Below are positions 1,586-60,976 of a stretch of DNA of 64,000 nucleotides, in pieces. Source of the stretch: a virus; the IMG/VR virus record IMGVR_UViG_3300045988_114702; one strand, written 5' to 3'. Position 1 is the first letter of the stretch. Each line of letters begins with the position of its first letter. A program made the translations under genes and the position numbers. The notes under the pieces were generated by a model. The model did not search any database. It was given only the letters and a program-made list of their open reading frames with translations, and was not told where the DNA came from.

Positions 1586-1594
1586 CTCTTAGCC

Positions 1595-2319: not shown

Positions 2320-2322
2320 TGC

Positions 2323-7841: not shown

Positions 7842-8028
7842 TGCTATCCCCCTTGTCCAGAATCATATAGTACTCGTACTGGGTGCCCGGGTTGGCGTTT
7901 GGACGGCGGCGCACGATGTCAACCCGATACCCCGCTTTCAAGAGCAGCCGTCCCAACTCTAAGCGTTCATCTTCCGAGAGTCCTTTTGCCTTAGACGGCG
8001 CAAGGGAAAGTTCGATTTTAGCCAACAC
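7834..8028 (-). CDS. hypothetical protein
   Basis: 64-aa ORF in the operon. Confidence 0.5.
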   Translation of the reverse strand: MLAKIELSLAPSKAKGLSEDERLELGRLLLKAGYRVDIVRRRPNANPGTQYEYYMILDKGDSNA

Positions 8029-29572: not shown

Positions 29573-30846
29573 GCTGCTATCCTCACTTTCTTCATTGCAT
29601 TTCTTTGTGTCGTTACGCGGATTGCTACTTTTGCGGCCGTGAACAGCTTTTTCTGTTTTAGGGCTTCGCTGATTGCACGAGATTTTGTCCAGTCAAAATA
29701 GCCGTTATAGCTGACCAGCTTGTATGACCGCCAGACCGGCACATATCCATTTCGTGAAACATCAGCCTTGGCTCGAATGTACTGCCGCCGAGCCCTCAGA
29801 AAAATTCTGGGGCGTATCGTGGTGTAGGTACGGTGCATCACATAGCCAGCCATATCCAAACCCGGGCATCCTTTTGCCGCTCCCGTTAGGTGTCTGCGTT
29901 GATGCTCTTCAGCGGCGCTAAGAAAGTCCACACGAACCCACTCGTTTTTTATTGTCAATCCCAGTTCGGTCAGCGCCCACTTAGTCAATTTTCGGGCTGC
30001 ACTCTGTATGTCAGCCCATCGTCGGCCAAACAAAACAAGGTCATCCATATAGCTACCGCTGCGGATCACGAATCGCGTGGATGCTCCACGGCGAATCTTT
30101 GCATAACTCATGACCTTGACCAGCATATAGCTGGCAACAAGGTTAAAAAGCCACGCTTCAAGATAGCCGCCGATAAGCAATCCCTCACCCGGAGCCATTG
30201 CTAAAAGACATTTGACAACAGCCAGAAGCCATGTTGCTCCCGGGATTTCTTTCTGCAGGATCTTCATCACAAGTTCCTGTTTTGTGTGGGCGTATGCCCC
30301 CTGCACATCCAGCTTTATTGCATACTGTATGCCAAGACTTTTTCTGCGAAGCCAACGCTCGACTTGACGCTTCAAAGCGATTTGTCCCTTGCCGGGAATA
30401 CTGGCAAATTGATACGGCAACAGTTTTGCCTGAAGCAACGGGCGAAGTCCAAGTACCGCCAAATGCCCAAAAGCTTGGTGCATTGGACAGCAGTTAGACA
30501 GTTCCCGCCGTTTCATGCTGATTCCATCAATTCTGTAGAACACGCTCACAGGGTCAAGATCAAGGTCGTCTGTTTCTCCGTCCAACAAATCTTCTATCCG
30601 TTGCTCCATTTCAAGAGCAATCCCATTTACGGCTTCTAAACGCGGGTTCCAGTCGTTTACGCGGGCGGCGCTCGATAGTTGTGCACGGCTTACACCTCCA
30701 TATTTTTCCACCGTAGCGAGGTAATCCCGGCGGAACCATTTCTTATCAAAAGCTTCAAGGACAGCACGCTCGCACATTTCATGATTGAGCGACAAGTACC
30801 TCTTTGTTTTCATATCCTTAAAGCCTCCAAACTTGCTGATGTTCAA
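29569..30846 (-). CDS. reverse transcriptase (DGR-type)
   Basis: SYMDDLVLFG (YxDD) motif, with fingers/palm layout. It is adjacent to the TR/VR pair. Confidence 0.85.
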   Translation of the reverse strand: MNISKFGGFKDMKTKRYLSLNHEMCERAVLEAFDKKWFRRDYLATVEKYGGVSRAQLSSAARVNDWNPRLEAVNGIALEMEQRIEDLLDGETDDLDLDPVSVFYRIDGISMKRRELSNCCPMHQAFGHLAVLGLRPLLQAKLLPYQFASIPGKGQIALKRQVERWLRRKSLGIQYAIKLDVQGAYAHTKQELVMKILQKEIPGATWLLAVVKCLLAMAPGEGLLIGGYLEAWLFNLVASYMLVKVMSYAKIRRGASTRFVIRSGSYMDDLVLFGRRWADIQSAARKLTKWALTELGLTIKNEWVRVDFLSAAEEHQRRHLTGAAKGCPGLDMAGYVMHRTYTTIRPRIFLRARRQYIRAKADVSRNGYVPVWRSYKLVSYNGYFDWTKSRAISEALKQKKLFTAAKVAIRVTTQRNAMKKVRIAA

Positions 30847-31056
30847 CGGATTTCGGTTGCCGTTTCAGGCCTTAAATCAGGCAAAACGGATTTCTACTAC
30901 TCACCGCCACGCAGTCCCAAAAACTGCGGCCACGCTCTCACCAATGCGTCCGTATATCTCGAAACGCTCAGCTACATGGTGTCGGTATAACATGATCTTA
31001 GTGGTCAAGCCACAGGCGCAATGAAACGCTTATGCCCTTTTGAGGGCTATTTATCA

Positions 31057-31206
31057 TCAGCATTCCGGGGCACGCCGTTCCAGCTCGAGTTCGCCGGGGA
31101 ATTGTTGCCATTCGCGCAAGGCAGGCCGCAGTTAGCACCGTCATTCAGGTTGCCACCGCGCCACGGGGCGTACAGACCCGCCGAACTGGGCGAAATAAAC
31201 GCAGCC
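31057..31206 (-). repeat. DGR template repeat (TR)
   Basis: Aligns to 31352-31501 at a constant offset of 295. The sense strand is rich in AAC codons. Confidence 0.8.
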
Positions 31207-31329
31207 ACACGCCGCTTCATTGCTCCATAAAATAATCGGCTTGCGCCGATGGTAAACCATCGGCGCAAGCTGGGAAACGTGAACAGGGATTAGGGGGTTA
31301 CACCCCCTCTATGTGCCTACGGCACATAT

Positions 31330-33057
31330 TCACCCTCTCTTTTTGCCCGAGCCAGCAAGCCGGGGCACGCCGCACCAGCCCGAGAACGCCGGGGAAACGC
31401 CGCCAAACGCGCAAGGCAGGCCGCAGCAAGCACCGCCATACAGGTAGCCACCGCACCAAGGGGCGCACAGACCCGCCGAACCGGGCGAAACAAACGCAGC
31501 CCGTACATAGGTGGAACCGCTGCCATTGAACTTTTCATACATCATGGCTTCCGTACCCAACTTGCCCAGCTTACGGATATAGTGCCACGACCAAGTCGCC
31601 TTGTCGTTCAGGTCGAAGGAGCCGGTCTGGGCATAGTCCGAGGAGATAGAACCAACCTGCTTCTCACCGCTCTTGCAGGAGAACACGTCATAGTGCCAGT
31701 GGTCATCGTCCACGATGCTGGCTTTCCACAGAGGGTCAAGCTGTTCCGTATAAGCGCCGATCTGCATCTCGATGCCGGCCACACGGTACGGATATTTTCC
31801 GTTCGTCAGATTACCCCGACATCCATCGCTATGTCCCTGCACGCCCTCTGTTGTGCCGGACTCCCACGGCATAGTAGATACCAGCATCGTGGTCGTAGTG
31901 TCGATAGGAGAATCCAACTCAAGGTTCAGAGCCACATACTCGGTCTCGCTCACGGTCACATTGGTAATGCTGGAAATCTTGGCCCAGTTGAAAATATTGT
32001 GATTATAGTCCGTGTTGCGGTCCGTTCCCGTATTCTCGCCACGCTCACCCATGCAAACAGCAGAGCCCACAAGGAAATTTGCCCCCTGCGCTTTCGTCAC
32101 GAGCACTCGCTTTACTCCCGTTTCCGCCACAGCAGGGCTGTACTGGTAATTATAGACAGTGCAGCCCTCCAGCTTGCCGCTGTTGCTCAGCGTCCAATGG
32201 CGCAGCCGCCACTGCGCCAGAACATACTGCTGGTCGCAGTCAGTCCACAGGGCATCATAAGCGGTGATTTTACGAGCCAGAGGGATAGCAGCGTTGGCGC
32301 TTGTCCACGGCATCGGGGGCAGTCCAGCACCGCTGGTCATTCCACCCTTGGAATTTTTGCCGCCAAGGAAAGCCGGGTGCCATGTCAGCCAGCGGCGACT
32401 CTTATCAGGGGCCACATCGCCAGCCATAGGATCATAGCCGCCGCCCTCGAAGGTGCGGAAAGAGTTATACAGGTATGCGCCATCCTCCCACTCCTTCAGC
32501 ATCAAGGACAGAGCGAAGCAGTAAACGGGTGCGGTTTCGCCGGAAAGATCAAACCCGGTTTCACCCTCAACTGCCAGCACGTTCATCGTGCCATCTTCCA
32601 AGGACAGCGCATTGGCGCGAATGTACCATGTGAAAGGATCCTCTTCCGACCAGTCTGCGGTTTCCGGGCTGGTGTCAGTCAGAAGCGGAGCCGCTTCACG
32701 CCCGTCTGCCAGATCATCCAGCGGGGTGCCGGTGTAATCACCACTCACATCATCACTGTAGAAGCGAACGGTGTAGGTTTTGCTGCGAGCGCTCTCTGCG
32801 AGCATTTTCGCAAAGCGTTCCAGGCGCTGATACTTCGTCACGCCATCACCGGCAGACAGCGGCCACCAGCTCCAGAAGATTTCTGTGGTATTTTTGCCAT
32901 CCAGCAGACCGCGGAATGTTGCATCCACGAATTCTGCGCCGGCAGTACCGGCAGCAATGCCTGCCAAAATGTCATTTTGGCGTTTCATCTGAGCGGCCAG
33001 TTCCAGACCGGTTTCATCGCTCATAGGATGATTGATAAGTTCCCATGTGTCACCCAT
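31330..33057 (-). CDS. DGR target protein (probable receptor-binding tail fibre protein with C-terminal variable region)
   Basis: 575-aa ORF whose last 50 or so codons are the VR. It sits in the tail-fibre block. Confidence 0.8.
   Translation of the reverse strand: MGDTWELINHPMSDETGLELAAQMKRQNDILAGIAAGTAGAEFVDATFRGLLDGKNTTEIFWSWWPLSAGDGVTKYQRLERFAKMLAESARSKTYTVRFYSDDVSGDYTGTPLDDLADGREAAPLLTDTSPETADWSEEDPFTWYIRANALSLEDGTMNVLAVEGETGFDLSGETAPVYCFALSLMLKEWEDGAYLYNSFRTFEGGGYDPMAGDVAPDKSRRWLTWHPAFLGGKNSKGGMTSGAGLPPMPWTSANAAIPLARKITAYDALWTDCDQQYVLAQWRLRHWTLSNSGKLEGCTVYNYQYSPAVAETGVKRVLVTKAQGANFLVGSAVCMGERGENTGTDRNTDYNHNIFNWAKISSITNVTVSETEYVALNLELDSPIDTTTTMLVSTMPWESGTTEGVQGHSDGCRGNLTNGKYPYRVAGIEMQIGAYTEQLDPLWKASIVDDDHWHYDVFSCKSGEKQVGSISSDYAQTGSFDLNDKATWSWHYIRKLGKLGTEAMMYEKFNGSGSTYVRAAFVSPGSAGLCAPWCGGYLYGGACCGLPCAFGGVSPAFSGWCGVPRLAGSGKKRG
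31352..31501 (-). repeat. DGR variable repeat (VR) at the 3' end of the target gene
   Basis: 24 mismatches to the TR, 22 of them at TR sense-strand adenines. Confidence 0.8.
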
Positions 33058-34201: not shown

Positions 34202-35596
34202 TCAGCCGATTCCATTTTCATCAGCGAATTTCAGAAGGGCTGCTCTTTCGATTTTAAGAAACTCTTCATAGTCGGCAGCGGGAAGTATCTCGAGAGCATC
34301 ATCTTTTGGCAGTTCAGCCTTGATGGGAAGGCAATCCCCTATTTCGATGTACCGCCGGTTGTGATAGTATGCGCTTGCAAGAACGCGGGCTTTATGAACC
34401 CAGCAGATGCCCGTAAAGCGTTTATTGGCTGTGCCGTACATCTCATAGTTCAAACCGGAACACCAGCCACAGCCGGCAGATACAGGGCAGTCAATACACT
34501 TCTGCTCAGACTGTGAGGTGAGGGTAATCGCATCGAGTTCTGCTTTAGCCTTGCGTTGGGAATCAGTGGTATACAGACCATCATAGACGCTGCCGAAGCG
34601 AACTTTCTTCGACTTTTCCTCGCCAATACTAATGGGTGCGTATCGAATGCAGGGGTACGCAGATCCATCAGGAGCAAACGATAGCATAGAGCCCGTGCCA
34701 CCACAAAAGTTGTGATTGTCTTTAGCTCTCCCCCCTAAGAGGCTGTCAAAAATTGTGACCAGCACATCCAGCCTATTGTTCACAATGTAGTTAGCCACAA
34801 TTTTCAATTGGCTGTACAAAACATAGCCATCTGACGGATTATAAAGAGGCTCATAAGCATAGTTACAGGCAATGCTGTCGCATCCCTCATTCAGCATCAT
34901 TATGATGCTATCTGCGATATACTTGAACGAACCGGGAACAAAAGTCATTTTCGTTGAACCGTTCCAGCCGTACTTTTTACTGTCCTGAAACGCTTTCCAC
35001 GCCTTTGCGAAGCTTCCGTTTCCATGTTCATCAAGTCGGTACATATCATGAAGCTCCTGCACGCCGTCAATACTGACGGTAACGGACATCATTTCATGAT
35101 ATTTCTCAAAAAGGTGCTGCGCTTCAGGACTGAACCACAGCTGACCGTTTGTGGCAAACGAAATTCTGGTAAACGGCGCAAGAGGGATACTGCGTTTCCA
35201 GCATTGCTCAAACCAGTAATCGCAGATGTATTCAATCAAGGGGGCTTCCAGCAAAGGCTCTCCCCCGATAAAGTCAAGAACAACGGCTTTTGTGTCTTGG
35301 TTGACGAAGTCAGAGGTGTTCTGCTTATACAGATCCAGCAGATAATCAACGATTCTTTTGCCGGTTTCGGGAGTCATACTCTCCGCTCCTTTGTGATGCT
35401 CGTAGCAATACGAACACCTGAGATTGCACCCGCTGGTCACCTGAAATGTAACATTGCGACAAGCACTTCGCGTTTCAGGTAAATCACGGCAGTACAGTCT
35501 CTGGACAGAGTTTCCGTAATCCTCAAACCGTTTGCTTTTCAAACAACTGCACCTCCTTCCGTCCAAAGTCAAATTGGTATCCGTTGAAAGGTTCAC
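34202..35596 (-). CDS. radical SAM / SPASM-domain peptide-modifying enzyme (CXXX-repeat-target maturase type)
   Basis: SGCNLRCSYCYEHH (CX3CX2C). C-terminal CGGTGSMLSFAPDGSAYPC ... CIDCPVSAGCGWC auxiliary-cluster motifs. An alternative TTG start lies at 35542, after GGAGGTG. Confidence 0.85.
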   Translation of the reverse strand: MNLSTDTNLTLDGRRCSCLKSKRFEDYGNSVQRLYCRDLPETRSACRNVTFQVTSGCNLRCSYCYEHHKGAESMTPETGKRIVDYLLDLYKQNTSDFVNQDTKAVVLDFIGGEPLLEAPLIEYICDYWFEQCWKRSIPLAPFTRISFATNGQLWFSPEAQHLFEKYHEMMSVTVSIDGVQELHDMYRLDEHGNGSFAKAWKAFQDSKKYGWNGSTKMTFVPGSFKYIADSIIMMLNEGCDSIACNYAYEPLYNPSDGYVLYSQLKIVANYIVNNRLDVLVTIFDSLLGGRAKDNHNFCGGTGSMLSFAPDGSAYPCIRYAPISIGEEKSKKVRFGSVYDGLYTTDSQRKAKAELDAITLTSQSEQKCIDCPVSAGCGWCSGLNYEMYGTANKRFTGICWVHKARVLASAYYHNRRYIEIGDCLPIKAELPKDDALEILPAADYEEFLKIERAALLKFADENGIG

Positions 35597-50001: not shown

Positions 50002-51066
50002 TTACAGGCCATAGACCAGGCAGGCAGACAGAGGATAAGGAATAGCCATGCCTGCATCGCGCCCTTCGCAGTTGATGACAATTTCCAGATTACGATCCTG
50101 CGGCGCGTGCTGCAGGAATGCCATAGGCACATCATGGTACATCTTTTCAGCGTCCTTGGTGTACAGCAGGCCGATGTTCTTACCCGTGGTGTTGTAGTCC
50201 GTATTGCCCTTGGACAGTTCGCCAGCAACCTCCCAGTTGGTAATCTGGGGAGTATGGTCCTTGATGTAGGACAGCACAGATTCACCGGTGCCATCAATGC
50301 GGCGCAGGTTCAGGCTGGTGTAGAGGTCATTGGGCATGACCCAGGAATCCGGGTGCTCCACACTCTGGGTCAGGGTGTCAATGTAGTTCAGAATGCCGGC
50401 AATGTCTGCGGCGATTTCATCGGCCGTTTTGCTTGCCCAGTCAGACTTGCCGCTGGCACCGTTCTGGAGGGTGTAGATGGGGATATTATTGTCGGAGGAC
50501 AGCACGCCGATGATGCCGGTCTTTGCATCGCCGTTCCAGATCAGGTGATTCACCTTCACATCATACACGCGGCGGGCGGCTTCTGCACGGGCGGAGTCCA
50601 GAGACTTCATGATGCCCAGAACGGCATTGCGGCGGCAGGCGCGCAGTTCCTGCACATTGTAACCGTAGCTGTCACCGATGTTGACGATTTCAGCACGATG
50701 GGGAGTGCCCTTCACATCAACGCGGGGCAGGTCTGAAGCATAGTTGGCGATGATGTCAGCAAAGCCCACAGGCTCATAGGAGTAGTACTCGATGTAGGCC
50801 GCGCCCTCATCGGTATCGCTGGTCTGCGGGAAGATTTTCAGGCCAGACAGTTCCGGAAACTCCTTGTCATACGCCTTGGTCTTAACGTGAGCCAGCTGCT
50901 TGGCAAAGAAGATGCCTGCATTGTCAGCGGCATCCAGACGAAGCGCTGCGCCAGGGAAAGGATTCTTATACGCCTGATTGATAAGCGAAGAGCATTTGCC
51001 GGACAGGGCAACGCGGTCTTCCTCGCTGTAGCCATTGGCGGGGTCAAAGGGATTAAACTTAGCCAT
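50002..51066 (-). CDS. major capsid protein (DUF2184-like)
   Basis: 354 aa, positioned after the scaffold and cement genes. Confidence 0.8.
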   Translation of the reverse strand: MAKFNPFDPANGYSEEDRVALSGKCSSLINQAYKNPFPGAALRLDAADNAGIFFAKQLAHVKTKAYDKEFPELSGLKIFPQTSDTDEGAAYIEYYSYEPVGFADIIANYASDLPRVDVKGTPHRAEIVNIGDSYGYNVQELRACRRNAVLGIMKSLDSARAEAARRVYDVKVNHLIWNGDAKTGIIGVLSSDNNIPIYTLQNGASGKSDWASKTADEIAADIAGILNYIDTLTQSVEHPDSWVMPNDLYTSLNLRRIDGTGESVLSYIKDHTPQITNWEVAGELSKGNTDYNTTGKNIGLLYTKDAEKMYHDVPMAFLQHAPQDRNLEIVINCEGRDAGMAIPYPLSACLVYGL

Positions 51067-51079
51067 AGGTTATACCTCC

Positions 51080-51568
51080 TTAGAGCTGCTCTACGAACTG
51101 GGCGGGTGCGATGCCGTTCTGTGCCGCACCGATGAAGCGGGCCTTAACGGCCAGGTTGGTGCCCTTGATCGGAGTGAACTTGCCGGCATCATCACCGGTA
51201 ATCACCAGATACACCGGCTGGCCATAGGCGGGTTCCACAGAATCAACCAGCTGCACCCACAGCTTGCCGGACTGGCAAACGTCCAGGATCTGGCCCTTGC
51301 GCAGGAGCACGGCACCATCATCGTCCATTTCGGTATTGGCGCTGTACATCACAACGCCTTCAAACTTATCGGCAGTTGCGCCGGTAGCCGGCAGGGCAAT
51401 ATCCTTGCCCGGCTCGGTGCCCTGCACAACGCCGCAGCCGAAGAACAGCTTGCCATCCTCTGCACCATTCCGGCGGGTGACTGCATCGTAATTCGCACGG
51501 TCATAAAGCAGGCCGGGCATACCGCGGCTAGGCTCGCCGTAGTTCATCTGTACTGCCATATTGCTCAT
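51080..51568 (-). CDS. capsid cement/decoration protein candidate
   Basis: 162-aa beta-rich ORF between the scaffold and capsid genes. Confidence 0.5.
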   Translation of the reverse strand: MSNMAVQMNYGEPSRGMPGLLYDRANYDAVTRRNGAEDGKLFFGCGVVQGTEPGKDIALPATGATADKFEGVVMYSANTEMDDDGAVLLRKGQILDVCQSGKLWVQLVDSVEPAYGQPVYLVITGDDAGKFTPIKGTNLAVKARFIGAAQNGIAPAQFVEQL

Positions 51569-51571
51569 AGC

Positions 51572-52942
51572 TTAGTCCTCCTTCTCGCCAGCATGACGCT
51601 GGATCATACGATCGCGGGCCTCGTCAGGGTTGTTCTTCTTGCCCACATTGCGGACTGCCGCATTTGCGGAATCAGCATTGAACACCTGACGACGCTGGTC
51701 TGCCACAGTCTTGCGACCATTGATTTTACCCTTTGCGATATCAAAAGCCGCGTTGATGTAGGCTTTGCTCTTGCCATCCAGACGCATACCCGGAATAACG
51801 GCATGAACGACCTTTTTCTTTGCCTGCATTACCGGCATGGACTCCATGCCATCCAGATGCAGCTTATCGCCCAGCCGACACAGTTCCACACGCTGGCTGA
51901 CCTGCGCGGCAATGGATGCGGCGCTGTCATGGTTCAGCTGGTTGCTGGAATCGTCCGAGGTATCATCCTCATCTTCGGTAGGCTTGGTGTCGTCCTCTGC
52001 AGCATCAGCGCGGGCATTTGCGGCATCCAGCATAGACAGCAGGGTGTTGATGTCCGCTTTAGCCTGACCGTCCTCCATGGCATCACGGCGGGCAGTAATC
52101 TCTGCCAGCGCATCGGGCTTTGTAGGATCATCCTCGCCATCATCCTCGGTGGGCTTTGCAGGCTCACCGCCTGCTGCCGGGTCATTTTCATCGTCAGCAG
52201 TAGCGCCGCCGGCTGTTGCCGCCATGTACGCCTTGATTGCTGCCTGAATGCCAACGGGGTCAAGGCCGGGAGCCGCAGGGGGACCGCCCGCATCCTCGCC
52301 ATCATCAGTGGTAGGCTTCGTAGTGTCCACGGTGGTATCATCGTCCTGAGTGGGGTTGTTCATCTTTTCGTTCTCATCCATAGGGGTCATACCTCCATTG
52401 TTATCTTGGCTGTCCATATTCAGGCGGGCATCATCACCGGCACGGGCGACAGCAACCAGTGCCAGATGATTGACACGGATATGGGTCTGGATTGCATCAT
52501 ACGGCTCTCCGTTCCATTCTCCGGGTTCCATGATAAGGTCCTGATAATACCCAACAGACAGTTCCCGCAGACCGGATGCCTTTACCGCATCCGGGTCGTC
52601 AATGACGATTTTTGCACGAACGGTTTCTCCGTCCTGCTGTCCAGGGGTCAGGATTGTTCCCACTCTCTCCCGGCGGGCATTGTCCTTGTCGATTACCTGC
52701 GCATCGTGGGTTATGATGATGGGTTTTCCCTCATAGCTTGCAAGGCTTTCCGGGGCAAACACATCTTCCGGCCTGCGCAATTCTCGACGCTCCGAGCCAT
52801 CTTCCAGCGTGTACTTGAAGATGCCCGTGCGGGTCAGGATGGGGTTATCATAAAAATATCCCTCGGTGCTGTAATGCTCATCGACAGGCACACTGTCTGT
52901 CCGCATTTCGCTCCGAAGGACTAGCGGCGGATTCTGTTTCAT
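51572..52942 (-). CDS. DUF2213-like prohead scaffold/protease with acidic low-complexity centre
   Basis: The N-terminal PILTRTGIFKY...GKPIIITHD...LSVGY resembles DUF2213. Confidence 0.65.
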   Translation of the reverse strand: MKQNPPLVLRSEMRTDSVPVDEHYSTEGYFYDNPILTRTGIFKYTLEDGSERRELRRPEDVFAPESLASYEGKPIIITHDAQVIDKDNARRERVGTILTPGQQDGETVRAKIVIDDPDAVKASGLRELSVGYYQDLIMEPGEWNGEPYDAIQTHIRVNHLALVAVARAGDDARLNMDSQDNNGGMTPMDENEKMNNPTQDDDTTVDTTKPTTDDGEDAGGPPAAPGLDPVGIQAAIKAYMAATAGGATADDENDPAAGGEPAKPTEDDGEDDPTKPDALAEITARRDAMEDGQAKADINTLLSMLDAANARADAAEDDTKPTEDEDDTSDDSSNQLNHDSAASIAAQVSQRVELCRLGDKLHLDGMESMPVMQAKKKVVHAVIPGMRLDGKSKAYINAAFDIAKGKINGRKTVADQRRQVFNADSANAAVRNVGKKNNPDEARDRMIQRHAGEKED

Positions 52943-53865
52943 TGTTTCTTCTCCTTAAAGGCTGCAGAATTCAGCCTATCGAAGTTAAAGACAGGTTTTG
53001 CAACACAGCGGCACTGGTAGTCCTCTCCGGGATTGCAATGCCGCCCGCTATACACTTTGCCGTGCTTTGTCATGTACCACATGGCCGGCGGATCGTCATA
53101 ACGGAATTTCTGGCCATCAAGTTCACGGTGGCATTCGCGCACACGTTCATCACCTGATGAACTCCAGATATATTCCTCTACCCCAGCGGATTCCTGCCTT
53201 GTGCGGGTCAGATTCGCGCTCAGGGTGCCCACCTGGTCACGCGCAAGAAGATTGGCTTTCGACTTGGTCACATCAAACCGGCGTTGAATTTCATTGGAAA
53301 TCGCCGCCGGGGTGCGGCCTTTTGCAAAACCCTCAATAATGACGTTCTCCATATCATCGAAGCAGTCGCTTTCAATGCTGGTAATGAAGCTGACATTTTG
53401 CTCAACCCATCTTTTAAGCATCAGGTCGTATCTTTCGCCGAGAAAGAAGTCGTCATGGATATCCACTCCCAGCGTGGCGCGCACGCTGCGCTGCCATTCT
53501 TTGAGTTGCCGCCGGTCGGTGTAGTCAGCGCACCGGCGAACATCCCGTTCCAACGGATCGGTTTTCAGCCGCCGACTGAGCCGGTCACGCATAATGCGGA
53601 ACCTGCTCTGGATGCGGCGAACCATGTCGCTGTATCCATCATGTCTGATGCTGTCGGAGCCGGTTTTCTGTTCTTCCGCAACGATAGCCAGAATTTCAGG
53701 CATGGATTCTCGCACAATCTTCTGCAGTTCTTTCAACCGCCGATTTTCGATTGCGCGCATCTTGCTTTCTGCCCACTGCGGATACTCCGGCTCGATCTTT
53801 GATTTTTTCATCATTGAAGAGCGCCCGGTCATGCCGGGCCCATTATTCTTCACAGGCATATCCAC
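52939..53865 (-). CDS. head morphogenesis protein, Mu F / SPP1 gp7 family
   Basis: ERVRECHRELDGQKF...NPGEDYQCRCVAKPVF. Confidence 0.85.
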   Translation of the reverse strand: MDMPVKNNGPGMTGRSSMMKKSKIEPEYPQWAESKMRAIENRRLKELQKIVRESMPEILAIVAEEQKTGSDSIRHDGYSDMVRRIQSRFRIMRDRLSRRLKTDPLERDVRRCADYTDRRQLKEWQRSVRATLGVDIHDDFFLGERYDLMLKRWVEQNVSFITSIESDCFDDMENVIIEGFAKGRTPAAISNEIQRRFDVTKSKANLLARDQVGTLSANLTRTRQESAGVEEYIWSSSGDERVRECHRELDGQKFRYDDPPAMWYMTKHGKVYSGRHCNPGEDYQCRCVAKPVFNFDRLNSAAFKEKKQ

Positions 53866-53905
53866 CTCTTTATCTTTCCGGGAACCATTTTCCCTTTGCA
53901 GACAT

Positions 53906-53947
53906 CAAAAAGACCCTGCATCTCCACCTTGATGCAGGGTCTTTGTT
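53906..53947. terminator. 12-bp hairpin with T-runs on both strands between the tRNA cluster and the MuF gene
   Basis: AGACCCTGCATC-8 nt-GATGCAGGGTCT. Confidence 0.5.
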
Positions 53948-54145
53948 CTTATGGCATGCAGCGCTTGAATTTTTGACCTTTTGCTTACAGCGCGCATCCG
54001 TCCAAGTGCGAAGCGGAAGGAACGCGGTTTATGGCTCCGCGCCGGCTCTGTCATGGAACAGGCCGGAACACTTCGCAGCGGTCTGTTGGGAGCAGGGTCG
54101 GTGCTCCCTCATGCCATCGAGGTGCCGATTACGGTGTACGGCGGG

Positions 54146-54222
54146 TGGTGCTGGAGGTGGGGATTGAACCCACAGCCTGACGGTTACAAATCGCCTGCTC
54201 TGTCCTATTGAGCTACACCAGC
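54146..54222 (-). tRNA. tRNA-Thr (anticodon UGU), CCA encoded
   Basis: Hand-folded cloverleaf: acceptor GCTGGTG, T-arm GTGGG-TTCAATC-CCCAC, anticodon loop TTTGTAA. One acceptor mismatch and one anticodon-stem mismatch. Confidence 0.8.
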
Positions 54223-54229
54223 GTAAAAG

Positions 54230-54302
54230 CCGAGGGTACCGGGCTCGAACCGGCGGTCTGGGAGTCAAAGGCCCATGCCTTATCCAACTTGGCCAACCCT
54301 CG
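54230..54302 (-). tRNA. tRNA-Gln (anticodon UUG), no encoded CCA
   Basis: Acceptor CGAGGGT/ACCCTCG, D-region GCCAAGTTGGATAAGGC, loop CTTTGAC, T-arm GCCGG-TTCGAGC-CCGGT. Confidence 0.8.
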
Positions 54303-54305
54303 ATA

Positions 54306-54381
54306 TGGAGCAGTCAACGGGGCTTGAACCCGCGGCATCCTGCTTGGAGGGCAGGCGCTCTACCAACTGAGCTATGACTGC
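54306..54381 (-). tRNA. tRNA-Gly (anticodon UCC), CCA encoded
   Basis: Acceptor GCAGTCA/TGACTGC, anticodon stem CCTGC/GCAGG with loop CCTCCAA, T-arm GCGGG-TTCAAGC-CCCGT. Confidence 0.9.
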
Positions 54382-54446
54382 AAACAAAAAGAGCCTTTGC
54401 GAGGGACGCTTTCACGTCACCTGCAAAGGCTCTCAACGCCAATATT

Positions 54447-54644
54447 TTAGTCAAACACCTTTTTGCCTTCGGCAAACTTCTTTTTAGCTTCGTTCAGGCT
54501 GATGCGGTTATAACCGCCGCGATAATCAGGATCCGCTCTCTGCACGCCATCATTTACCCAGCCGCACACGGGGCATTCCTCAAAATCGTTGTCTTCATCA
54601 AAGCTATGCTGCCCACATACCGGGCAGAGGATTTTCTCAGTCAT
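54447..54644 (-). CDS. CPCC-family cysteine-rich small protein
   Basis: MTEKILCPVCGQHSFDEDNDFEECPVCGWVNDGVQ. The ATG at 54644 overlaps the portal stop (ATGACTGA). Confidence 0.65.
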   Translation of the reverse strand: MTEKILCPVCGQHSFDEDNDFEECPVCGWVNDGVQRADPDYRGGYNRISLNEAKKKFAEGKKVFD

Positions 54645-56976
54645 CTTCGATTCCTTCCAATTCAAGCTGACGTTTATAGTAATCTTCCCCATCGTCAGGC
54701 TTGAACATCGTTCTTACGCCCTTCTCTGGGGAACCTTTTGCAAAGTCATTTTTCTTCGCGTCATACCGGCACACAAGGCCATCTTTTGTCTTGTAGCCTT
54801 TTATACCGTTTCCGCACGGGCTTTCCAAAAGTTGAACCGCCCGCTTTTCGTACTGCTCCTTTGTTGTAATGCCATCGGGAGCGTACTCAGCGGCGTGGGT
54901 TCTTCCATTCTGCCAGTGGTTGTTCAGTTTCTGCTTGTTGGGGAAACCTTTCACCTTGAAAATGTTCGCGCCTTTTGCCGAAACTGCGTTAGAATTTATT
55001 TTAGCATGACTTTGAGAATCATTCAAGTCTTTTGATGAATTTTCCTCGCTCGATACATCTTTTGATGATGTAGAACCGCCAGAACTGGAGAACTTTCCAT
55101 CTTCATCGCGGTTGTGCTTGCTCTCGTCAAAATCATCCAGTGTAATGCCCAGCCGGTCAAGGTATTCTTTCACGCTTCTGAGAAACGGTTCAAACACAAG
55201 TCCACCGGGCACATCCTGTTTCAAAATCTGTTCAGGGGGCATCCATGTAGCCGTGAACATCTCCTTTTGGTCACACCGAGGAACGCCATCGAAGCCATTG
55301 ACGAGATAGATCTGAACGGGAAGCACCTCATCCGGCTTGCCCTTGCAGTTGCCGAGATAGGTAATATCTCCCACGTCAATATTGAACTCTTCCTTTGCTT
55401 CCCGGCGGAATGCCACGCTCGGCGTTTCCCCGGGTTCGATGTGACCGCCGGGGCCGCACCAGCCTTGCCCATCGGAGCGTTGGCCGCAGAGGATTTTTCC
55501 ATCATTCAGAACGAAGCCGGCAACATAACCGCAGTCACCTTCATCCGTAACCAGGTTGCCTGCCGCAGGCGGGTTCTGCGGATTGGTCGGCTGGGGAACG
55601 TCAGCCTCGCCCAAGCCCCAGTCCTGATTAACATCTGCTTCCGTGATGATGTTTTCAGGGTCAAACTGTTCATCCTGCGCCAAGGACTGGCGAACCTCGG
55701 GGATTTCCAAAATACCAGCCGTAACGTATGTAGATACAGTCTGTGCTCTGGTAAGCTGGGCCGCGGCATTTGCCTGGTCCTGCGTAGCCTTTTCATCATC
55801 AGACAGGCTCCATGCGCTCTTGTAGGTGATAGTGTACTCCGGCACCTCTTTGATTTCGCCGTTCCACACCATTCCGCGCAGAATCAGTTCGACCAGCGTG
55901 CGGGTGTTGTCCCGGAGGTCGCCAGACTGGATGCCGGACACGGCTTCCTTATAGTTCTCCATGTCCCCTTCGCCGGTGGCATTTTCACCCGCTGGGGAAC
56001 GGCCAAAGAGCCTAGTCTGCGGGATATGGCTCACAGCAGACAGCATTGCGCAGGCATTGTCCAGAATGTCCTTAACACCAGCCACAGACAGGGATTGAAT
56101 GCCCACATCCTCGCCATCTGCATCAATAAAGACCATGTTCAACAGATTACGGGCAAGGTCAAGCATCTCCATACGCTGAAGAACCGTATCGTCACCGTCT
56201 ACTGTAGACAGGACATTTGCGAGATTCTTCATTTTGTATGTCACCATTGACAGCCGTTCCAGCAAGCGAATGGAGTAGCCCGGACCGATGCAGGCGTTGC
56301 GAAGTTCTTCGCGGATGTGCATATACTCCGGAATGCCCCATGTACGGTAGAGGTTGGCCATCGTGGAGCCTTCGGGGATCTCCCCGTTATGGAATATCAG
56401 GCAGCGGGAAGAATGCACCACATAGCTGCCGTACACGCTGTTCACCTGGTAAAACTCCGGGATGCCCGTACCGCCTTTGCGGTAGTTTTCATCGTCAGGG
56501 TTGTTCTCATAGCCGTTGATCCACAGCGGGAACACCTCGTTGCGGCCGTAAACCAGCAATTCTGCCACGCCGTGAACATCCCGCCAGTTCAGCGGATCCT
56601 GAAGAAGTCTGCCATCGTCCACCAGCATAACAACAGCGGAGCCACCGAACAGACGCGCCCATTTCAGCGCCTTTGCAAGTTTGCTTTGGTAGTGAATGGT
56701 CTGCAGGTGGTCATCCAGCCGCTTTTGTAGGTCTTTATCCTTGATACCCAGGTCAATGCCATTCTTGGTGGCATCATCCGCTGGGGCATCAATGATGGTC
56801 GAAAACAGACCATTTCCTGCATAAAGGTCGGCCAGTTCCGCGTCTGTCACAGCAGCACCAGTTGCCCACTGGTAATACTCGGTGCTATCGTGCTGGGTGC
56901 CATACTTGTTCAGGACGTTGTAATAGCCATCGAGGCGAAGTTGTGGTTTGATTTTACCGGCAATAACTTTTTTCAC
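54637..56976 (-). CDS. portal protein fused to a NUDIX hydrolase domain and a C-terminal toxin-like domain
   Basis: Single 779-aa ORF. It has a portal-like N-terminal region of about 470 aa, a NUDIX box GHIEPGETPSVAFRREAKEEFNI (nt 55144-55539), a KHNRDEDGKF linker, and a roughly 110-aa C-terminal module (nt 54640-54969). Confidence 0.8.
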   Translation of the reverse strand: MKKVIAGKIKPQLRLDGYYNVLNKYGTQHDSTEYYQWATGAAVTDAELADLYAGNGLFSTIIDAPADDATKNGIDLGIKDKDLQKRLDDHLQTIHYQSKLAKALKWARLFGGSAVVMLVDDGRLLQDPLNWRDVHGVAELLVYGRNEVFPLWINGYENNPDDENYRKGGTGIPEFYQVNSVYGSYVVHSSRCLIFHNGEIPEGSTMANLYRTWGIPEYMHIREELRNACIGPGYSIRLLERLSMVTYKMKNLANVLSTVDGDDTVLQRMEMLDLARNLLNMVFIDADGEDVGIQSLSVAGVKDILDNACAMLSAVSHIPQTRLFGRSPAGENATGEGDMENYKEAVSGIQSGDLRDNTRTLVELILRGMVWNGEIKEVPEYTITYKSAWSLSDDEKATQDQANAAAQLTRAQTVSTYVTAGILEIPEVRQSLAQDEQFDPENIITEADVNQDWGLGEADVPQPTNPQNPPAAGNLVTDEGDCGYVAGFVLNDGKILCGQRSDGQGWCGPGGHIEPGETPSVAFRREAKEEFNIDVGDITYLGNCKGKPDEVLPVQIYLVNGFDGVPRCDQKEMFTATWMPPEQILKQDVPGGLVFEPFLRSVKEYLDRLGITLDDFDESKHNRDEDGKFSSSGGSTSSKDVSSEENSSKDLNDSQSHAKINSNAVSAKGANIFKVKGFPNKQKLNNHWQNGRTHAAEYAPDGITTKEQYEKRAVQLLESPCGNGIKGYKTKDGLVCRYDAKKNDFAKGSPEKGVRTMFKPDDGEDYYKRQLELEGIEDD

Positions 56977-56995
56977 CTTTTCTCCTTTCCGGCTA

Positions 56996-58438
56996 TCATA
57001 TCAGACTGCGCACATCAAAGATGCCGCCCTCATACAGCGCAAGAGCTACCGCGTCAGCGCGGTCAGGACTGGTCAGGCCGCGCTTCTTCAAGGCATCCTT
57101 GCCTTCAAGTTTCAGCTTCAGTGGTGTGCCCGCGAAGATGTATTTACGGGTGGTAAGTTGTCCTATCAGGGTTGAATCGTTCGGGATATGTAGGGTGCCT
57201 GCCGTGGCCATATCCCGTAGGACTGCCCACATCCACGTTGCGATATCTGCATAGCGCCCGGCGGCTTCCTTGTCCGGCACGGCGCTGGAGAAGTTCACCG
57301 GCACGACCATCAGCTTGGTTAGCTTCTGCCGAATCTTTTCTCGGTTGAGAATGTCGGTCACGCCGCCGCCAACGCCGGTGTCATCAATGACCGCATAAAT
57401 CAGGCCGCGGTACTGCGGATACGCTGCACGCAGGGCTTTATATATCGCAATGATATCATCTGCCGTAGCGTACAGGTCTTGACCGTGGCGTGTGACCAGC
57501 TTTTGGATATCTCCATCAATGTTCTGTGCAATGGCCGTATCATCGTTGCCAAAGCGGGCAACGTCACACCCGATGGATATCCGGGCTGGAGAACAATGTT
57601 CCAGAGGTTCAGTATTGACAGCCTTTGTGGCGAGTGCCATCGGAATAAAGACATCGTCCTCATTCTCCGGGAACTCTCCGTCAACACGGACACGGACTAC
57701 ATTGCTGTTCTTGCCGAACTTCCGCTCCAAGTCAGCGATATTCTGCTTATTCGTGCGGGGGCTGTCCCTGCTGGACACCTTCATACAGTAGTAGGACTGG
57801 GCGTCCACGGTATGCGAATCGTGGAATGTGCCAGTGTTCTGCGTTGGGTTTCCGCACATCAGTAAGCGGTTGTTATCGCCGGAAAGCGTGCCCTGTATAG
57901 CCTCCATGATGGGGTCAGCAACACCAGATGCCTCATCCACCACGAAAAGCATATTGTCTTCGTGGAAGCCCTGCATATTCTCCGGCTTGGTGGCTGTTCG
58001 AGCCACGGCGAACCAGCGTTTCTCATGTCCTCTCATGTAAACACGAGTCTTTGTCCATACAAGCATAGCCTGCAAGACAGGGCTGCGTTCCTGCCACTTG
58101 GCAATCTCGGCCCAGAGGACATCATTTAACTGCTGACGAGTCGGAGCCGTGCACACCACGCGTGGATACGGGAAGCAGGACAGAAACCAAAGGACTAGGT
58201 TCGCTTCAAAAGCAGTCTTGCCAACGCCCTGTCCTGAGCGAATTGAAACCTTGCGGTGTTGTGCAATAGCTGTGGCGGCTTCTTTTTGCCACGGATCAGG
58301 CGCAAAGCCAGTCACCTCCGCAAAGAATTTGCAGGGATTTTTGCGGTACAAGGGCACCCGCCGGGCAAAGACTTCACGTTGCTTCATCGCCATCGTCTGC
58401 GCCCTCCGATTCCGCATCCGCGGCTTCAACGGCCGCAA
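56996..58438 (-). CDS. terL: terminase large subunit
   Basis: Walker A SGQGVGKT and FVVDEASG Walker B-like motif, with a nuclease half. The exact start is uncertain. Confidence 0.85.
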   Translation of the reverse strand: MRPLKPRMRNRRAQTMAMKQREVFARRVPLYRKNPCKFFAEVTGFAPDPWQKEAATAIAQHRKVSIRSGQGVGKTAFEANLVLWFLSCFPYPRVVCTAPTRQQLNDVLWAEIAKWQERSPVLQAMLVWTKTRVYMRGHEKRWFAVARTATKPENMQGFHEDNMLFVVDEASGVADPIMEAIQGTLSGDNNRLLMCGNPTQNTGTFHDSHTVDAQSYYCMKVSSRDSPRTNKQNIADLERKFGKNSNVVRVRVDGEFPENEDDVFIPMALATKAVNTEPLEHCSPARISIGCDVARFGNDDTAIAQNIDGDIQKLVTRHGQDLYATADDIIAIYKALRAAYPQYRGLIYAVIDDTGVGGGVTDILNREKIRQKLTKLMVVPVNFSSAVPDKEAAGRYADIATWMWAVLRDMATAGTLHIPNDSTLIGQLTTRKYIFAGTPLKLKLEGKDALKKRGLTSPDRADAVALALYEGGIFDVRSLI

Positions 58439-59216
58439 CCCAATCGTCTACCAACTCGTTCTTGCCGCTGTTGCTCATTCTGCGCAGGTCGGCAAGCTGT
58501 TGTATCACCTTGGACTTCTGGCGCTGTACATCGGTCAATAGCCGCTCTAAGCGTTCCACGATAAGGTAGCTTGATTCAATGGTGGTTGATGTTTCTACGG
58601 TGGTGCCGGGGAGCCTTTCTTCCCGACTGACTTTGGCATCTATCCGCTCAATGTAGACCTCCTTGTCGTGGGCCTCTTTTTCCTTATCCTCATCCAAGCG
58701 GGTAAACGACCGGCTGGACTTGGATGTGTGCACCGACTGGATGTGCTGCTTTTTTTCCTGGACTGCGGAAATGCGCTGAAGCAGAAAAGCCTCCCGGGCA
58801 GTCAGCAGTTGAAGTTCCTGTATCAGCAGATCTTCTGCATCCACATCCTTCGTGCAGTCCTGAATGGCTTTTTGGTTTTCCTCTGAAAAAGAGCCAAACA
58901 TCACCGCAGACCAGCCACCGTGTTTCAAGGCATTCTGGTTACCCGGCGGCGCGCCTCCATGGTTGCCAACTGCATTGACATTACCCAGCGGTGCACCCGG
59001 CTTTGGCTTGCCATCCTGCGGGGCTTTCTGGGTGCATTTGGAAGATGCACCCTTGGGGTGCGGCGGGGTGCGTTTCTTGGGTGCACCCTTTTGTGCATCC
59101 CAATAGCGCTTCTTCCACGATTTCACAGTGTTCGGCGATACGTCCAGCTTCTTTGCGATTTCGGTGCATCCCATCCCTTTCTTATAAAGGGTGAACGCCT
59201 TATCTCGCTTTTCCAT
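58374..59216 (-). CDS. terS: terminase small subunit (N-terminal HTH)
   Basis: KKGMGCTEIAKKLDVSPNTVKSWKKRYW, located directly upstream of terL. Confidence 0.7.
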   Translation of the reverse strand: MEKRDKAFTLYKKGMGCTEIAKKLDVSPNTVKSWKKRYWDAQKGAPKKRTPPHPKGASSKCTQKAPQDGKPKPGAPLGNVNAVGNHGGAPPGNQNALKHGGWSAVMFGSFSEENQKAIQDCTKDVDAEDLLIQELQLLTAREAFLLQRISAVQEKKQHIQSVHTSKSSRSFTRLDEDKEKEAHDKEVYIERIDAKVSREERLPGTTVETSTTIESSYLIVERLERLLTDVQRQKSKVIQQLADLRRMSNSGKNELVDDWVAAVEAADAESEGADDGDEAT

Positions 59217-59283
59217 CTACATCGCCACCACTATCCTTCTTCATTTTCTGTCCCGGTATCTACCCGGGCTGTTGTGTTGTTCC

Positions 59284-59320
59284 GAAGAAAAAGCGCCGAC
59301 CCTTTGTAGAGCCGGCGCCG
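59284..59320 (-). terminator. hairpin plus T-run after the QueT-like gene
   Basis: On the minus strand: GCGCCG-loop-CGGCGC followed by TTTTTCTT. Confidence 0.45.
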
Positions 59321-59329
59321 CGTCCCCTC

Positions 59330-59791
59330 TCACACGACCTTTGCGAGAGCGGTTTTAGAGATCATCAGGTTTCCCAGTTCCACGGCCAGGAATGTGCCCG
59401 CGAACAGGCCAGCACTTGTCAGCCAGAACGGCGCGCCGACCATCATAGACAGCTCCACACCGATGAACAGAGCCACGGACAGGGAGAGAATAACCGCTTT
59501 CCACAGAATCCCCAGCTTTTTCCACGGCCCCCAGACCACCAGTGCGTATGCAGTCCCCTCAGCCAACAGACCAAAGAGCACATCGACCGGGCCGAAAGGA
59601 CTCGTTGCGTTTGCGATTGCAATTCCCAACAGCACCGCCGGGGCATACCGTTTATCCTTGAACGGGAGCGCACACAGCATATTGGCCACGCGGAACTGCA
59701 CAGCTCCCCAGGACAGCGGGTTCAGGGTAGTTAATGCGACATACAGAGCCGCGACAACTGCAGTTTGGCAGAGGGCTTTGGTGTTTTTCAT
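59330..59791 (-). CDS. queT: QueT-like queuosine-precursor transporter (ECF S-component type membrane protein)
   Basis: TAVVAALYVALTTLNPLSWGAVQFRVANML...KDKRY matches the QueT pattern, with about 5 TM helices. Confidence 0.7.
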   Translation of the reverse strand: MKNTKALCQTAVVAALYVALTTLNPLSWGAVQFRVANMLCALPFKDKRYAPAVLLGIAIANATSPFGPVDVLFGLLAEGTAYALVVWGPWKKLGILWKAVILSLSVALFIGVELSMMVGAPFWLTSAGLFAGTFLAVELGNLMISKTALAKVV

Positions 59792-59805
59792 GTTCCCTGT
59801 CCCCC

Positions 59806-60117
59806 TCATACCATAACGACCACATTACCGTGGGGTGCGTCATTCACCGCGGATTCGACCATGATCCAGCTGGGGTGCACTTCCTCAACCAGCTTTTTCT
59901 TCAGCTTGCTGGCCGCTTCCTCGATGACCAGGCTTTCACCTTCCAGACATTCGCGGATGAACTTGTCGATCTCGCAGTAGTCCGGGATAATCTCTGCCGG
60001 CTCCATGGTCACGGTAAATTCATTGGTGTAGTCTGCCTTTCCGATGGGGCAGAAGCACCGGCATTTCTGCTTGTAGACGATTTTTCGCACGCCGTAGCGA
60101 TTTTCAAACTTAGCCAT
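59806..60117 (-). CDS. small QueF-like / T-fold protein candidate
   Basis: The 104-aa product has CFCPIGKADYTNEFTVTMEPAEIIPD, which parallels the QueF segment CP.TGQPDFATI.I.YIPD. The downstream QueF motif is not conserved. Confidence 0.4.
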   Translation of the reverse strand: MAKFENRYGVRKIVYKQKCRCFCPIGKADYTNEFTVTMEPAEIIPDYCEIDKFIRECLEGESLVIEEAASKLKKKLVEEVHPSWIMVESAVNDAPHGNVVVMV

Positions 60118-60976
60118 TGTTTTCTTCTCCTTTCGGCTTCTGAACGATGAACAGCAGTTCTTTTGCCTCACGCGGGAACGGAATCGCCATAAAGGCTGTG
60201 AGGAATGCAGACGGGACATAGGCTTTCATGCGGGTGTAGAAGTCCCGCAGTGCCGGTTCCTGCTTGGAATAGAACTCGTCCATCTCCCGGACGCTGGTGA
60301 CCAGACCAACCTCCTGCACAATGCTGAATCCGATTTCGGCCAGCTTGGCTTTCAGTTCATCGTAGCCCCACTCATAGACATGAGCGCGGTACTGGGTCTG
60401 ATACCCATTGCCCGGGGTGTTCGGACAGGAGAGAAACATCTTTGCACCCGGCTTCATCACCTTGTAGCATTCTGCAAGGCTTTTTGCGCCGTCCGTAGGG
60501 TGCATATGCTCAATGGCAGAGGTGTAAATCACAAAATCGGCAAACCCCGCCGGGATGACTTTCGACATCTCAGCAACGTTGCCCAGCTTCCAACCCACCC
60601 GGAACGGGTAGTAGGAAGTCAGATCTTTAGGTTCAAGGTTCTTTGCGGTTGCGCCGCGCATAGCCTCTTTGATGTTCGCTTTGCTGATGTCTACGCCGGT
60701 ATAGGATGCAATATCCTTTGCGTAGTAGCGCAGCAGCGGGAGCATCAGAGAGCGGCCGCAGCACACATCCAGCACGTTCATGCCCTTTTTCGCCATGTGG
60801 GCGGCGGCAAGGTGCTGGATATAGTTCATTACGTCCAGATTGGTGAAGAAACCGTCTCTGAACTGCATATAAAAATTCCGCATCTGGTAGGTGGTGCAGA
60901 GAATTTTTTCTCTGTCCATGCCATCCTCAACGCGGTATACGATATCTTTATCCACGCCATTTTCCTTTCGTATCAA
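60110..60976 (-). CDS. class I SAM-dependent methyltransferase
   Basis: MNVLDVCCGRSLMLP (motif I), SYTGVDIS and FADFVIYTSAIEHM. The start is uncertain. Confidence 0.8.
   Translation of the reverse strand: MIRKENGVDKDIVYRVEDGMDREKILCTTYQMRNFYMQFRDGFFTNLDVMNYIQHLAAAHMAKKGMNVLDVCCGRSLMLPLLRYYAKDIASYTGVDISKANIKEAMRGATAKNLEPKDLTSYYPFRVGWKLGNVAEMSKVIPAGFADFVIYTSAIEHMHPTDGAKSLAECYKVMKPGAKMFLSCPNTPGNGYQTQYRAHVYEWGYDELKAKLAEIGFSIVQEVGLVTSVREMDEFYSKQEPALRDFYTRMKAYVPSAFLTAFMAIPFPREAKELLFIVQKPKGEENNG

Follow-up and report, generated by a model that had tools for sequence, protein, structure and literature searches.

Why should a phage portal protein end in an enzyme and a toxin-like module, and why should its stop codon overlap the start of a small cysteine-rich gene? 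The question is raised by a stretch of 64,000 nucleotides (nt) of viral DNA (IMG/VR record IMGVR_UViG_3300045988_114702; the whole stretch is referred to as the window), which is a temperate Faecalibacterium phage. In it, an open reading frame (ORF) of 779 amino acids (aa; 54637..56976, minus strand) leads from a portal domain through a NUDIX domain into a C-terminal module, and the next ORF encodes a protein of the CPCC family (Table 1). An earlier reading made from the letters alone (the sequence-only reading) had described the portal ORF as free of internal stops, which direct reading of the ORF bears out, and had seen in the module and the CPCC ORF a possible RNase toxin and its immunity partner. 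The interpretation favoured here, with moderate confidence, is that of a portal-borne polymorphic toxin system in this phage; that the module and the CPCC protein constitute a toxin-immunity system is, on sequence comparison, very probable.

A normal portal gene run together with the genes behind it by a missed stop codon or frameshift would give the same picture, and such an artefact finds some support in F. prausnitzii strain 2, in whose complete chromosome a 1-nt indel breaks the homologous prophage gene (L095, NZ_CP186691.1 2346257-2351600; portal 87% identical to that of the window) into two ORFs, 434 and 389 aa long (1501..2805 and 2681..3850). This split, which may reflect a sequencing error, prophage decay or a frameshift, sits within the portal domain and not at a domain junction. 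The uninterrupted ORF of portal, NUDIX domain and module is found in most of 80 independent IMG/VR contigs, in two Faecalibacterium metagenome-assembled genomes (MAGs) and in many metagenome protein clusters, and the sequenced isolate phage FP_Brigit carries the same fusion as gp30 (37% identity over 97% of the length). PHROG 15528 also matches the ORF from end to end (residues 2-779 against 20-793 of 794). Because the intact ORF recurs in this way, an artefact is excluded, its residual probability being negligible.

The AlphaFold2 model of the full-length protein, built on 32 homologues, contains three confident blocks (residues 39-443, 482-613 and 664-779), and the stretches between them (444-481 and 614-663) have a predicted local distance difference test score (pLDDT) below 50; as modelled, the protein is three folded beads on a string joined by disordered linkers. 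The succession of a portal and a full NUDIX domain given by the sequence-only reading agrees with Pfam, which places Phage_portal_3 (PF06381) at residues 47-406 (E 1e-68; 232 bits, cutoff 33.8) and the NUDIX domain at residues 486-588. The phrog_146 portal profile aligns with residues 7-457 and TIGR01555 (HI1409 family) scores 136 bits, under its cutoff of 196. Other GenBank phage portals align only up to about residue 450, and the sequence past this point is therefore an extension.

The C-terminal module is hardly visible to family models. Pfam returned no family at E up to 10 for either the C-terminal 111 or 170 aa, the NCBIfam scan gave no match, and among PHROGs the matches were confined to the full-length portal PHROG and, weakly, one annotated 'minor head protein'. 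An alignment of 35 non-redundant members of the module family (A1), in which H687, H694, Y709, G727, R737, T756 and Y766 are invariant, was used as a profile against the Protein Data Bank (PDB) and matched one solved protein, 8ey4_A, a 'PT-VENN domain-containing protein' (CdiA-CT; E 3.2e-8), in an alignment that spans the HW..H..E motif to RTMFKP..G.EY. The entry is entitled 'Contact-dependent growth inhibition toxin-immunity protein complex from E. coli O32:H37'.

The AlphaFold2 model of the module (pLDDT 88.7) consists of three helices, a four-stranded sheet and a C-terminal helix (H27-34, H40-47, H52-64, E71-76, E81-85, E90-95, E99-104 and H110-120), and its best Foldseek match in the PDB is 8ey4_A (E 4.5e-5; template modelling (TM) score 0.84; root-mean-square deviation 1.8 Å). 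The only other credible fold matches are four colicin D tRNase entries, 1tfk, 1v74, 1tfo and 5znm (Foldseek probability ~0.9), and a fold search of BFVD gave one 456-aa viral protein and nothing further. The Tox-ColD motif elements listed by Zhang et al. 2012 are [KH]K, Hxx[ED], [ST] and [TS]xxK; at the level of patterns, as distinct from a residue superposition on colicin D, H694-x-x-E697 and T756-x-x-K759 fit Hxx[ED] and [TS]xxK, and the [KH]K element is not evident in the module. Profile and fold matches together support the assignment of the module as a colicin-D-like or CdiA-CT(O32:H37)-like BECR-fold putative tRNase, in line with the likeness to BECR-type RNase toxins that had been proposed.

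The small ORF belongs, as had been claimed, to the CPCC family: PF14206 (Cys_rich_CPCC) matches it at E 1e-16 with 60.8 bits (cutoff 24.5), and it contains CPVCG twice. Its ATG at 54644, preceded by a Shine-Dalgarno-like GGAAGG stretch, overlaps the portal stop codon in ATGACTGA, an arrangement by which the CPCC gene is translationally coupled to the portal gene. The ORF-calling program listed a form of 81 aa with an upstream start at 54692; since the 65 closest IMG/VR loci share the start at −7 and homologues measure 62-67 aa, the product is most likely 65 aa long. Against the PDB, the 65-aa protein matches 8ey4_I and 8ey3_A, both 'Cys_rich_CPCC domain-containing protein', at E 1e-16 (1.2e-16 for 8ey4_I), and 8ey4_I is the partner chain of 8ey4_A within a single solved CdiA-CT/CdiI complex. 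That the module and the CPCC ORF match the two chains of one complex is the strongest evidence that the CPCC ORF encodes an immunity protein. A literature search found no paper that links CPCC or PF14206 to immunity or gives PF14206 a function.

The same partnership is seen in the distribution of the two genes. A scan of IMG/VR with a pattern taken from a tight module alignment (A2) gave 80 loci, and in these and FP_Brigit a CPCC gene lies directly downstream of the module in 81 of 81 cases, at −16 to +20 nt from the stop codon. Bacterial genomes (Faecalibacterium, Ruminococcus and other Clostridia) add 12 of 12 assessable loci, three further loci ending at a contig edge; divergent B-type modules are likewise followed by a CPCC ORF (63 and 89 aa), as are the MuF-borne modules of Streptococcus phages MismyG and phiS10. 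Whether the carrier is a portal of either of two families, MuF or a short protein, a CPCC gene immediately follows the module at each locus that could be assessed. Relatives with a different tail or none lack it: those with a Lys-rich tail (L002-4; portal 87% identical) have an acidic 84-aa ORF downstream and no CPCC, a relative with a DUF4258-like tail (L090; weak Pfam match, below cutoff) has an unrelated 79-aa ORF and no CPCC, and in tail-less portal-NUDIX genes (L005-7) no CPCC is present and the next gene is directly MuF. Near-identity among many of the viral loci means that the independent support amounts to about ten lineages and four carrier types, and not to 81 cases. The role of immunity partner that had been suggested for the CPCC protein is thus backed both by the match to 8ey4_I and by its strict co-variation with the module. 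Separately, five Streptococcus satellite phages (Javan344, Javan323, Javan339, Javan325 and Javan218) carry CPCC-family genes in records in which the toxin module was undetected; these may be orphan immunity genes.

Comparison of the window with a Lys-rich-tail relative (L002) shows the two genes changing together. In blastn the two DNAs are homologous over 59500..55061 (82%) and 54452..51004 (86%), with nothing in between; the left break falls just past the DDFDESKH.RDE.GKFSSSGGS junction and the right break three bases beyond the CPCC stop codon. As homology breaks at 55061 and 54452, linker, toxin and immunity gene have been swapped as one unit, and replacement of a cassette as a unit is the defining behaviour of polymorphic toxin loci. 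The replacement cassette in the relative (L002:5923-6548) encodes a Lys-rich tail of about 130 aa and the very acidic 84-aa ORF, neither with a Pfam match, which may be another toxin-immunity pair. Among 120 portal homologues the tails comprise this module, a divergent B form, the Lys-rich tail, the DUF4258-like tail, an HNHP-motif tail and no tail, and ART insertions are also seen.

At the left border of the cassette lies the motif KHNRDEDGKF (55090..55119), which occurs once in the window by motif scan and had been likened to the linker of MuF-type toxins. The likeness holds in part: in portal fusions and in some short proteins (such as P0154, with SKHPRGPDGKF) the module comes after a junction motif [ED]SKH.R[DG]..GK[FL], and KH.RD..GKF is not present in MismyG, the one MuF carrier examined for the motif. 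Other relatives have GSGNFGH.GRPG..GGS at the equivalent position, and no paper describing a KHPRD/GKF motif was found in the literature search. The junction motif may mark a cleavage site, act as a docking peptide or be a joint for recombination.

The module is also found on other proteins. A profile search of 1.84 billion representative proteins returned 2093 clusters with the module, 581 of them at E <= 1e-10, and in all of the best 150 of the 2093 the module is at the C-terminus. These best 150 clusters include 45 carriers of at least 250 aa: 11 PF04860 portals, 8 PF06381 portals, 7 proteins with a NUDIX domain, 2 MuF proteins, 1 prohead protease and 2 with ART. Portals of two Pfam families are hence the commonest recognisable carriers among the best 150 clusters. 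Three loci (L083, L084 and L086) combine a PF04860 portal, the module and CPCC without NUDIX, and a metagenomic protein of 1342 aa (P0088) carries a PF06381 portal, an unassigned region, ART (PF03496), NUDIX and then the same module; a protein of 1162 aa (P0084) is alike, without a recognisable ART domain.

In GenBank, Streptococcus temperate phages have the module on MuF (annotated 'protein F-like' or 'minor capsid protein'), with an overlapping CPCC gene in MismyG and phiS10. In one relative of the window (L005:4001-7543) the portal ends after the NUDIX domain (620 aa) and a 504-aa MuF with an HNHP-motif C-terminus is followed by a 58-aa Cys-rich ORF; in relatives of this type the cargo appears to be on MuF instead of the portal. 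As cargo sits on either protein in relatives, portal and MuF look interchangeable as carriers in this head module. The same toxin-CPCC pair occurs on CdiA (8EY4) and on MuF, and the module also occurs on PF04860 portals and a head protease. The features by which polymorphic toxins are recognised, namely a constant carrier with alternative C-termini, a co-varying downstream immunity gene and the cassette on other carriers, are all found here.

The second passenger is the NUDIX domain, whose box had been transcribed correctly as G511-HIEPG-E517-TPSVAFR-R525E526-A-K-E529E530-F-N-I. It fits the GX5EX7REUXEEXGU consensus with the last Gly replaced by Asn as the sole departure. Since G508, P509, G510, G511, E517, R525, E526, E529 and E530 are invariant in 32 homologues (40-95% identity), the catalytic box is intact and the domain looks like an active enzyme. 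The best solved relative is the 'probable pyrophosphohydrolase' 3ees (E 4e-12), which we take to be the Bdellovibrio RNA pyrophosphohydrolase BdRppH, followed by MutT/MTH1, ADP-ribose pyrophosphatase and Ap4A hydrolase at 1e-7 to 1e-5. No NCBIfam equivalog reaches its cutoff on the domain, and the PADLOC scan gave a match to a generic NUDIX domain only. The RNA 5'-end or cap, the nucleotide pool and an ADP-ribose (ADPR)-type compound are possible substrates.

How such a protein might act can be sketched from the position of its carrier. Portals are dodecamers at one capsid vertex with their C-termini facing the capsid interior, so that the portal crown would carry as many as 12 domains of each kind, NUDIX and toxin, inside the head. 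While late proteins build up in the producing cell, the CPCC protein would bind and silence the RNase. Proteolysis at the disordered linkers would release the domains, which would then exit through the portal and tail channel together with the DNA. On arrival in the next cell the RNase would cleave tRNA or other RNA and the NUDIX enzyme, with RppH/MutT-type proteins as its closest solved relatives, would hydrolyse a nucleoside-diphosphate-X substrate, and both might reshape host RNA metabolism or blunt defences ahead of phage gene expression. The packaging, injection and delivery steps of this scheme are modelled on portal biology and on the hypotheses for MuF toxins and polyvalent proteins; a head-packaged and injected cargo has precedent in Jamet et al. 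2017 (PMC5576092), Iyer et al. 2017 (PMC5512222) and Iyer et al. 2022 (PMC9503650). Delivery of the toxin into the next cell is, by this analogy, a serious possibility that we stop just short of favouring.

A more elaborate version, held only tentatively, treats the portal dodecamer as an effector launch pad. The 12 NUDIX and 12 tRNase domains at the crown, possibly capped by CPCC, would be cut at the linkers as the particle matures and leave by threading, either with the DNA or ahead of it, CPCC being stripped off on unfolding as with colicins; a defined dose would thereby act before the phage genes, and cassette swaps would allow the phage to escape or exploit prophages and satellites with orphan CPCC genes.

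The beneficiary could instead be the lysogen. Under model b of Jamet et al. 2017, lysogens would release virions that arrest non-lysogenic competitors as an inter-bacterial weapon or means of kin discrimination, the prophage CPCC gene would protect the lysogens, and cassettes would mark lineages. The phage carries a tyrosine integrase (25358..26470, plus strand), on which its temperate lifestyle is based, and it is present as a prophage in Faecalibacterium genomes, its portal protein being 96% and 89% identical to genes of two Faecalibacterium MAGs. A toxin paired with cognate immunity, a cassette replaced between near-identical phages as in CDI (contact-dependent growth inhibition) and MuF systems, and satellite CPCC genes that look like orphan immunity genes also accord with this model. 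Set against it, the CPCC gene overlaps the stop codon of a late structural gene and has no separate promoter-like site directly upstream, so that its expression in lysogens is unsupported. A promoter of its own for lysogens had been considered and was rejected, as the sole nearby consensus match, a weak site (Table 1), precedes the toxin module too, and sites of this kind are no more numerous than in shuffled sequences. Death of the infected cell would moreover destroy the incoming phage genome. A role as a weapon is rather unlikely on this balance.

Alternatively, the extensions may never be delivered, staying on the portal or acting in the producing cell in nucleotide or RNA handling during packaging, in DNA retention or as an addiction-type toxin-antitoxin pair. 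The domains and an essential structural protein make up a single covalent chain in which a cleavage site was not found, the module is under strong purifying selection, and Iyer et al. 2017 (PMC5512222) view MuF-C of phage Mu as a BECR domain that is inactive and probably serves in binding. A purely resident function sits less easily with the invariance of the candidate catalytic residues H687, H694 and T756 in more than 35 divergent members, and with the retention of an immunity homologue at every assessable locus. It also fits poorly with the cargo-like movement of the module among portal, MuF, head protease and short proteins and its pairing with ART and NUDIX; furthermore, close relatives function with another kind of tail, and more distant ones have no tail at all. 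This explanation is unlikely.

Several points nevertheless weigh against a portal-borne polymorphic toxin that is carried into cells. Pfam, which we take to include PBECR and Colicin_D models, matches the module with neither of them, and R737, invariant in the phage family, aligns with a Tyr in 8ey4_A. Module sequences are 55-68% identical, compared with 42-48% for their portal carriers, which is unusual for a toxin in an arms race; lateral transfer would explain this high conservation. The literature search found no paper on 8EY4 or on the activity or substrate of its toxin, and the RNase activity, toxicity and neutralisation of the present pair are predictions from homology, just as the retention of the extensions in the virion, their cleavage and their ejection are deduced by analogy. 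No protease site was identified in the protein, and a covalently tethered domain cannot leave uncut. A temperate phage that injects a potent tRNase risks harm to the cell it needs. Finally, sequence alone does not give the substrate of the NUDIX domain.

Among known systems, CdiA-CT/CdiI of E. coli O32:H37 (PDB 8EY4; immunity protein alone, 8EY3) contains the closest solved relative of the module, with which it shares HW..H..E and RTMFKP..G..Y, and, its partner chain being a CPCC protein, the cognate pair is conserved as a pair. In 8EY4 a type V secreted CdiA filament with a PT-VENN pre-toxin region bears the toxin at its tip, in a Gram-negative host, whereas here a Firmicute phage has the toxin at the tip of its portal; the two toxins are about 26% identical, and R737 stands in place of the Tyr. 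The colicin D tRNase with its immunity protein ImmD (1V74, 1TFK, 1TFO and 5ZNM) shares the helix and four-stranded-sheet BECR topology and, as patterns of letters, Hxx[ED] and [TS]xxK, but is more remote (TM 0.42-0.53, identity 12-14%), has an immunity protein unrelated to the CPCC zinc ribbon, and has a KK motif that is not evident in the module. Colicin D cleaves tRNA-Arg, and this substrate cannot be transferred to the module of the window.

The MuF toxins (Jamet et al. 2017, PMC5576092) likewise have a head-module protein with variable C-terminal toxins and small immunity ORFs behind it, in temperate Firmicute phages abundant in the gut, and the very same toxin-CPCC pair rides on MuF in MismyG and phiS10. 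Here, by contrast, the carrier is the essential portal, MuF is bare and a NUDIX enzyme is interposed; the fusion does not belong to the MuF-toxin family because its carrier has no N-terminal MuF domain. Copy number differs as well, SPP1 gp7 (MuF) being cited at 1-2 copies (PMC5576092) against the textbook 12 portal subunits per virion.

The sequence-only reading had held that published cargo rides on MuF and that here the portal carries it. The second half stands, since MuF in the window has PF04233 and no extension; the first is too narrow, as the computational surveys of Iyer et al. 2017 (PMC5512222) describe PBECR RNase domains fused to both MuF and portal domains, and those of Iyer et al. 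2022 (PMC9503650) describe Nudix fused to MuF, portal and head protease, in each case read as packaged and injected. As far as could be seen from these papers, a CPCC partner, a cassette swap and the combined portal-NUDIX-toxin layout are not described in them, and phage Nudix domains are placed mostly in NudE-like or NadM-like clades, unlike the present one with 3ees as its nearest solved relative. In FP_Brigit, the portal-NUDIX-toxin protein gp30 is followed by gp31, an overlapping CPCC-like ORF of 62 aa; the two are annotated just 'portal protein' and 'hypothetical protein', and the literature search found no functional reading of the extension.

What is already known, from Iyer et al. 2017, Iyer et al. 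2022 and Jamet et al. 2017, is the concept of toxins borne on head proteins, and PHROG 15528 and FP_Brigit gp30 hold the architecture unannotated. As far as could be found, four things are new: the placement of the module in the CdiA-CT(O32:H37)/colicin-D clade, the identification of the CPCC family as its immunity partner, the exact cassette swap at a portal locus, and two portal Pfam families as the commonest recognisable carriers of the module. The uncharacterised family PF14206 thereby gains a working function as immunity protein, and one toxin-immunity cassette is seen to circulate between proteobacterial CDI systems and the head proteins of phages of Firmicutes. Phage polymorphic toxins (MuF toxins and polyvalent proteins) are widespread in gut phages, and their arrival in the target cell is still a hypothesis; a portal carrier would fix both the position and the copy number of the cargo, so that retention, cleavage and ejection would be open to cryo-electron microscopy and virion mass spectrometry. 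Cultured material exists in phage FP_Brigit on F. prausnitzii and the prophage of F. prausnitzii strain 2, and the crystal structure of the homologous pair (8EY4) serves as a guide.

Table 1. Features of the portal locus and its surroundings in the window (residue numbers refer to the 779-aa ORF).
Feature	Position	Strand	Remarks
TerL	56996..58438		adjoins portal gene on the side opposite to MuF
Portal domain, residues 1-443	55648..56976	-	GTG start at 56976; folded block 39-443 in the AlphaFold2 model
Linker 1, residues 444-481	55534..55647	-	Pro/Gln/Asn-rich; predicted disordered, pLDDT <50
NUDIX domain, residues 482-613	55138..55533	-	PF00293, E 5e-17; Nudix box G511..I533
Linker 2, residues 614-663	54988..55137	-	junction motif DDFDESKHNRDEDGKFSSSGGS, then Ser-rich stretch; pLDDT <50
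Promoter-like site	55026..54998	-	TTGAAT-17-TAAAAT with upstream TG; inside linker coding region, upstream of toxin module
Putative C-terminal toxin module, residues 664-779	54640..54987	-	116 aa; stop codon 54637..54639
CPCC zinc-ribbon ORF	54447..54644	-	65 aa, MTEKILCPVCG...CPVCGW...; putative immunity; ATGACTGA overlap with portal gene
Exchangeable cassette	54453..55060	-	Ser-rich linker, toxin module and CPCC gene; 608 bp, non-homologous in L002
tRNA-Gly(TCC), tRNA-Gln(TTG), tRNA-Thr(TGT) cluster	54146..54381	-	ARAGORN; between CPCC gene and MuF
MuF head-morphogenesis gene	52939..53865	-	308 aa; PF04233 at residues 171-289; no C-terminal cargo

The locus lies in a packaging module ordered TerS-TerL-portal-MuF-protease/scaffold-capsid, an order shared with relatives, and no second portal-like ORF was seen within that module, which was looked through for it in place of an exhaustive scan of the window. 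The tRNA genes next to the cassette suggested the idea that they replace tRNAs cut by the phage's own toxin, which the distribution of the cluster does not support: it is kept in close relatives with cassette A (L009, L049) as well as with cassette C (L002) and is missing from distant carriers of module A, and is therefore not tied to the toxin type.

Just upstream of the terminase genes are a QueT transporter (59330..59809, minus strand) and a SAM methyltransferase (60110..60976, minus strand). Elsewhere, the window contains a tape measure gene, a radical SAM protein (34202..35596, minus strand) and a PcfJ-like protein (8018..10213, minus strand). A diversity-generating retroelement occupies 29569..33057 on the minus strand, with a reverse-transcriptase-like ORF at 29569..30846 (RVT_1, E 4.6e-5) and a 149-nt repeat pair made up of a template (31058-31206) and a variable copy (31353-31501). 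The variable copy forms the 3' end of a 575-aa ORF (31330..33057), and all mismatches between the two are at template adenines.

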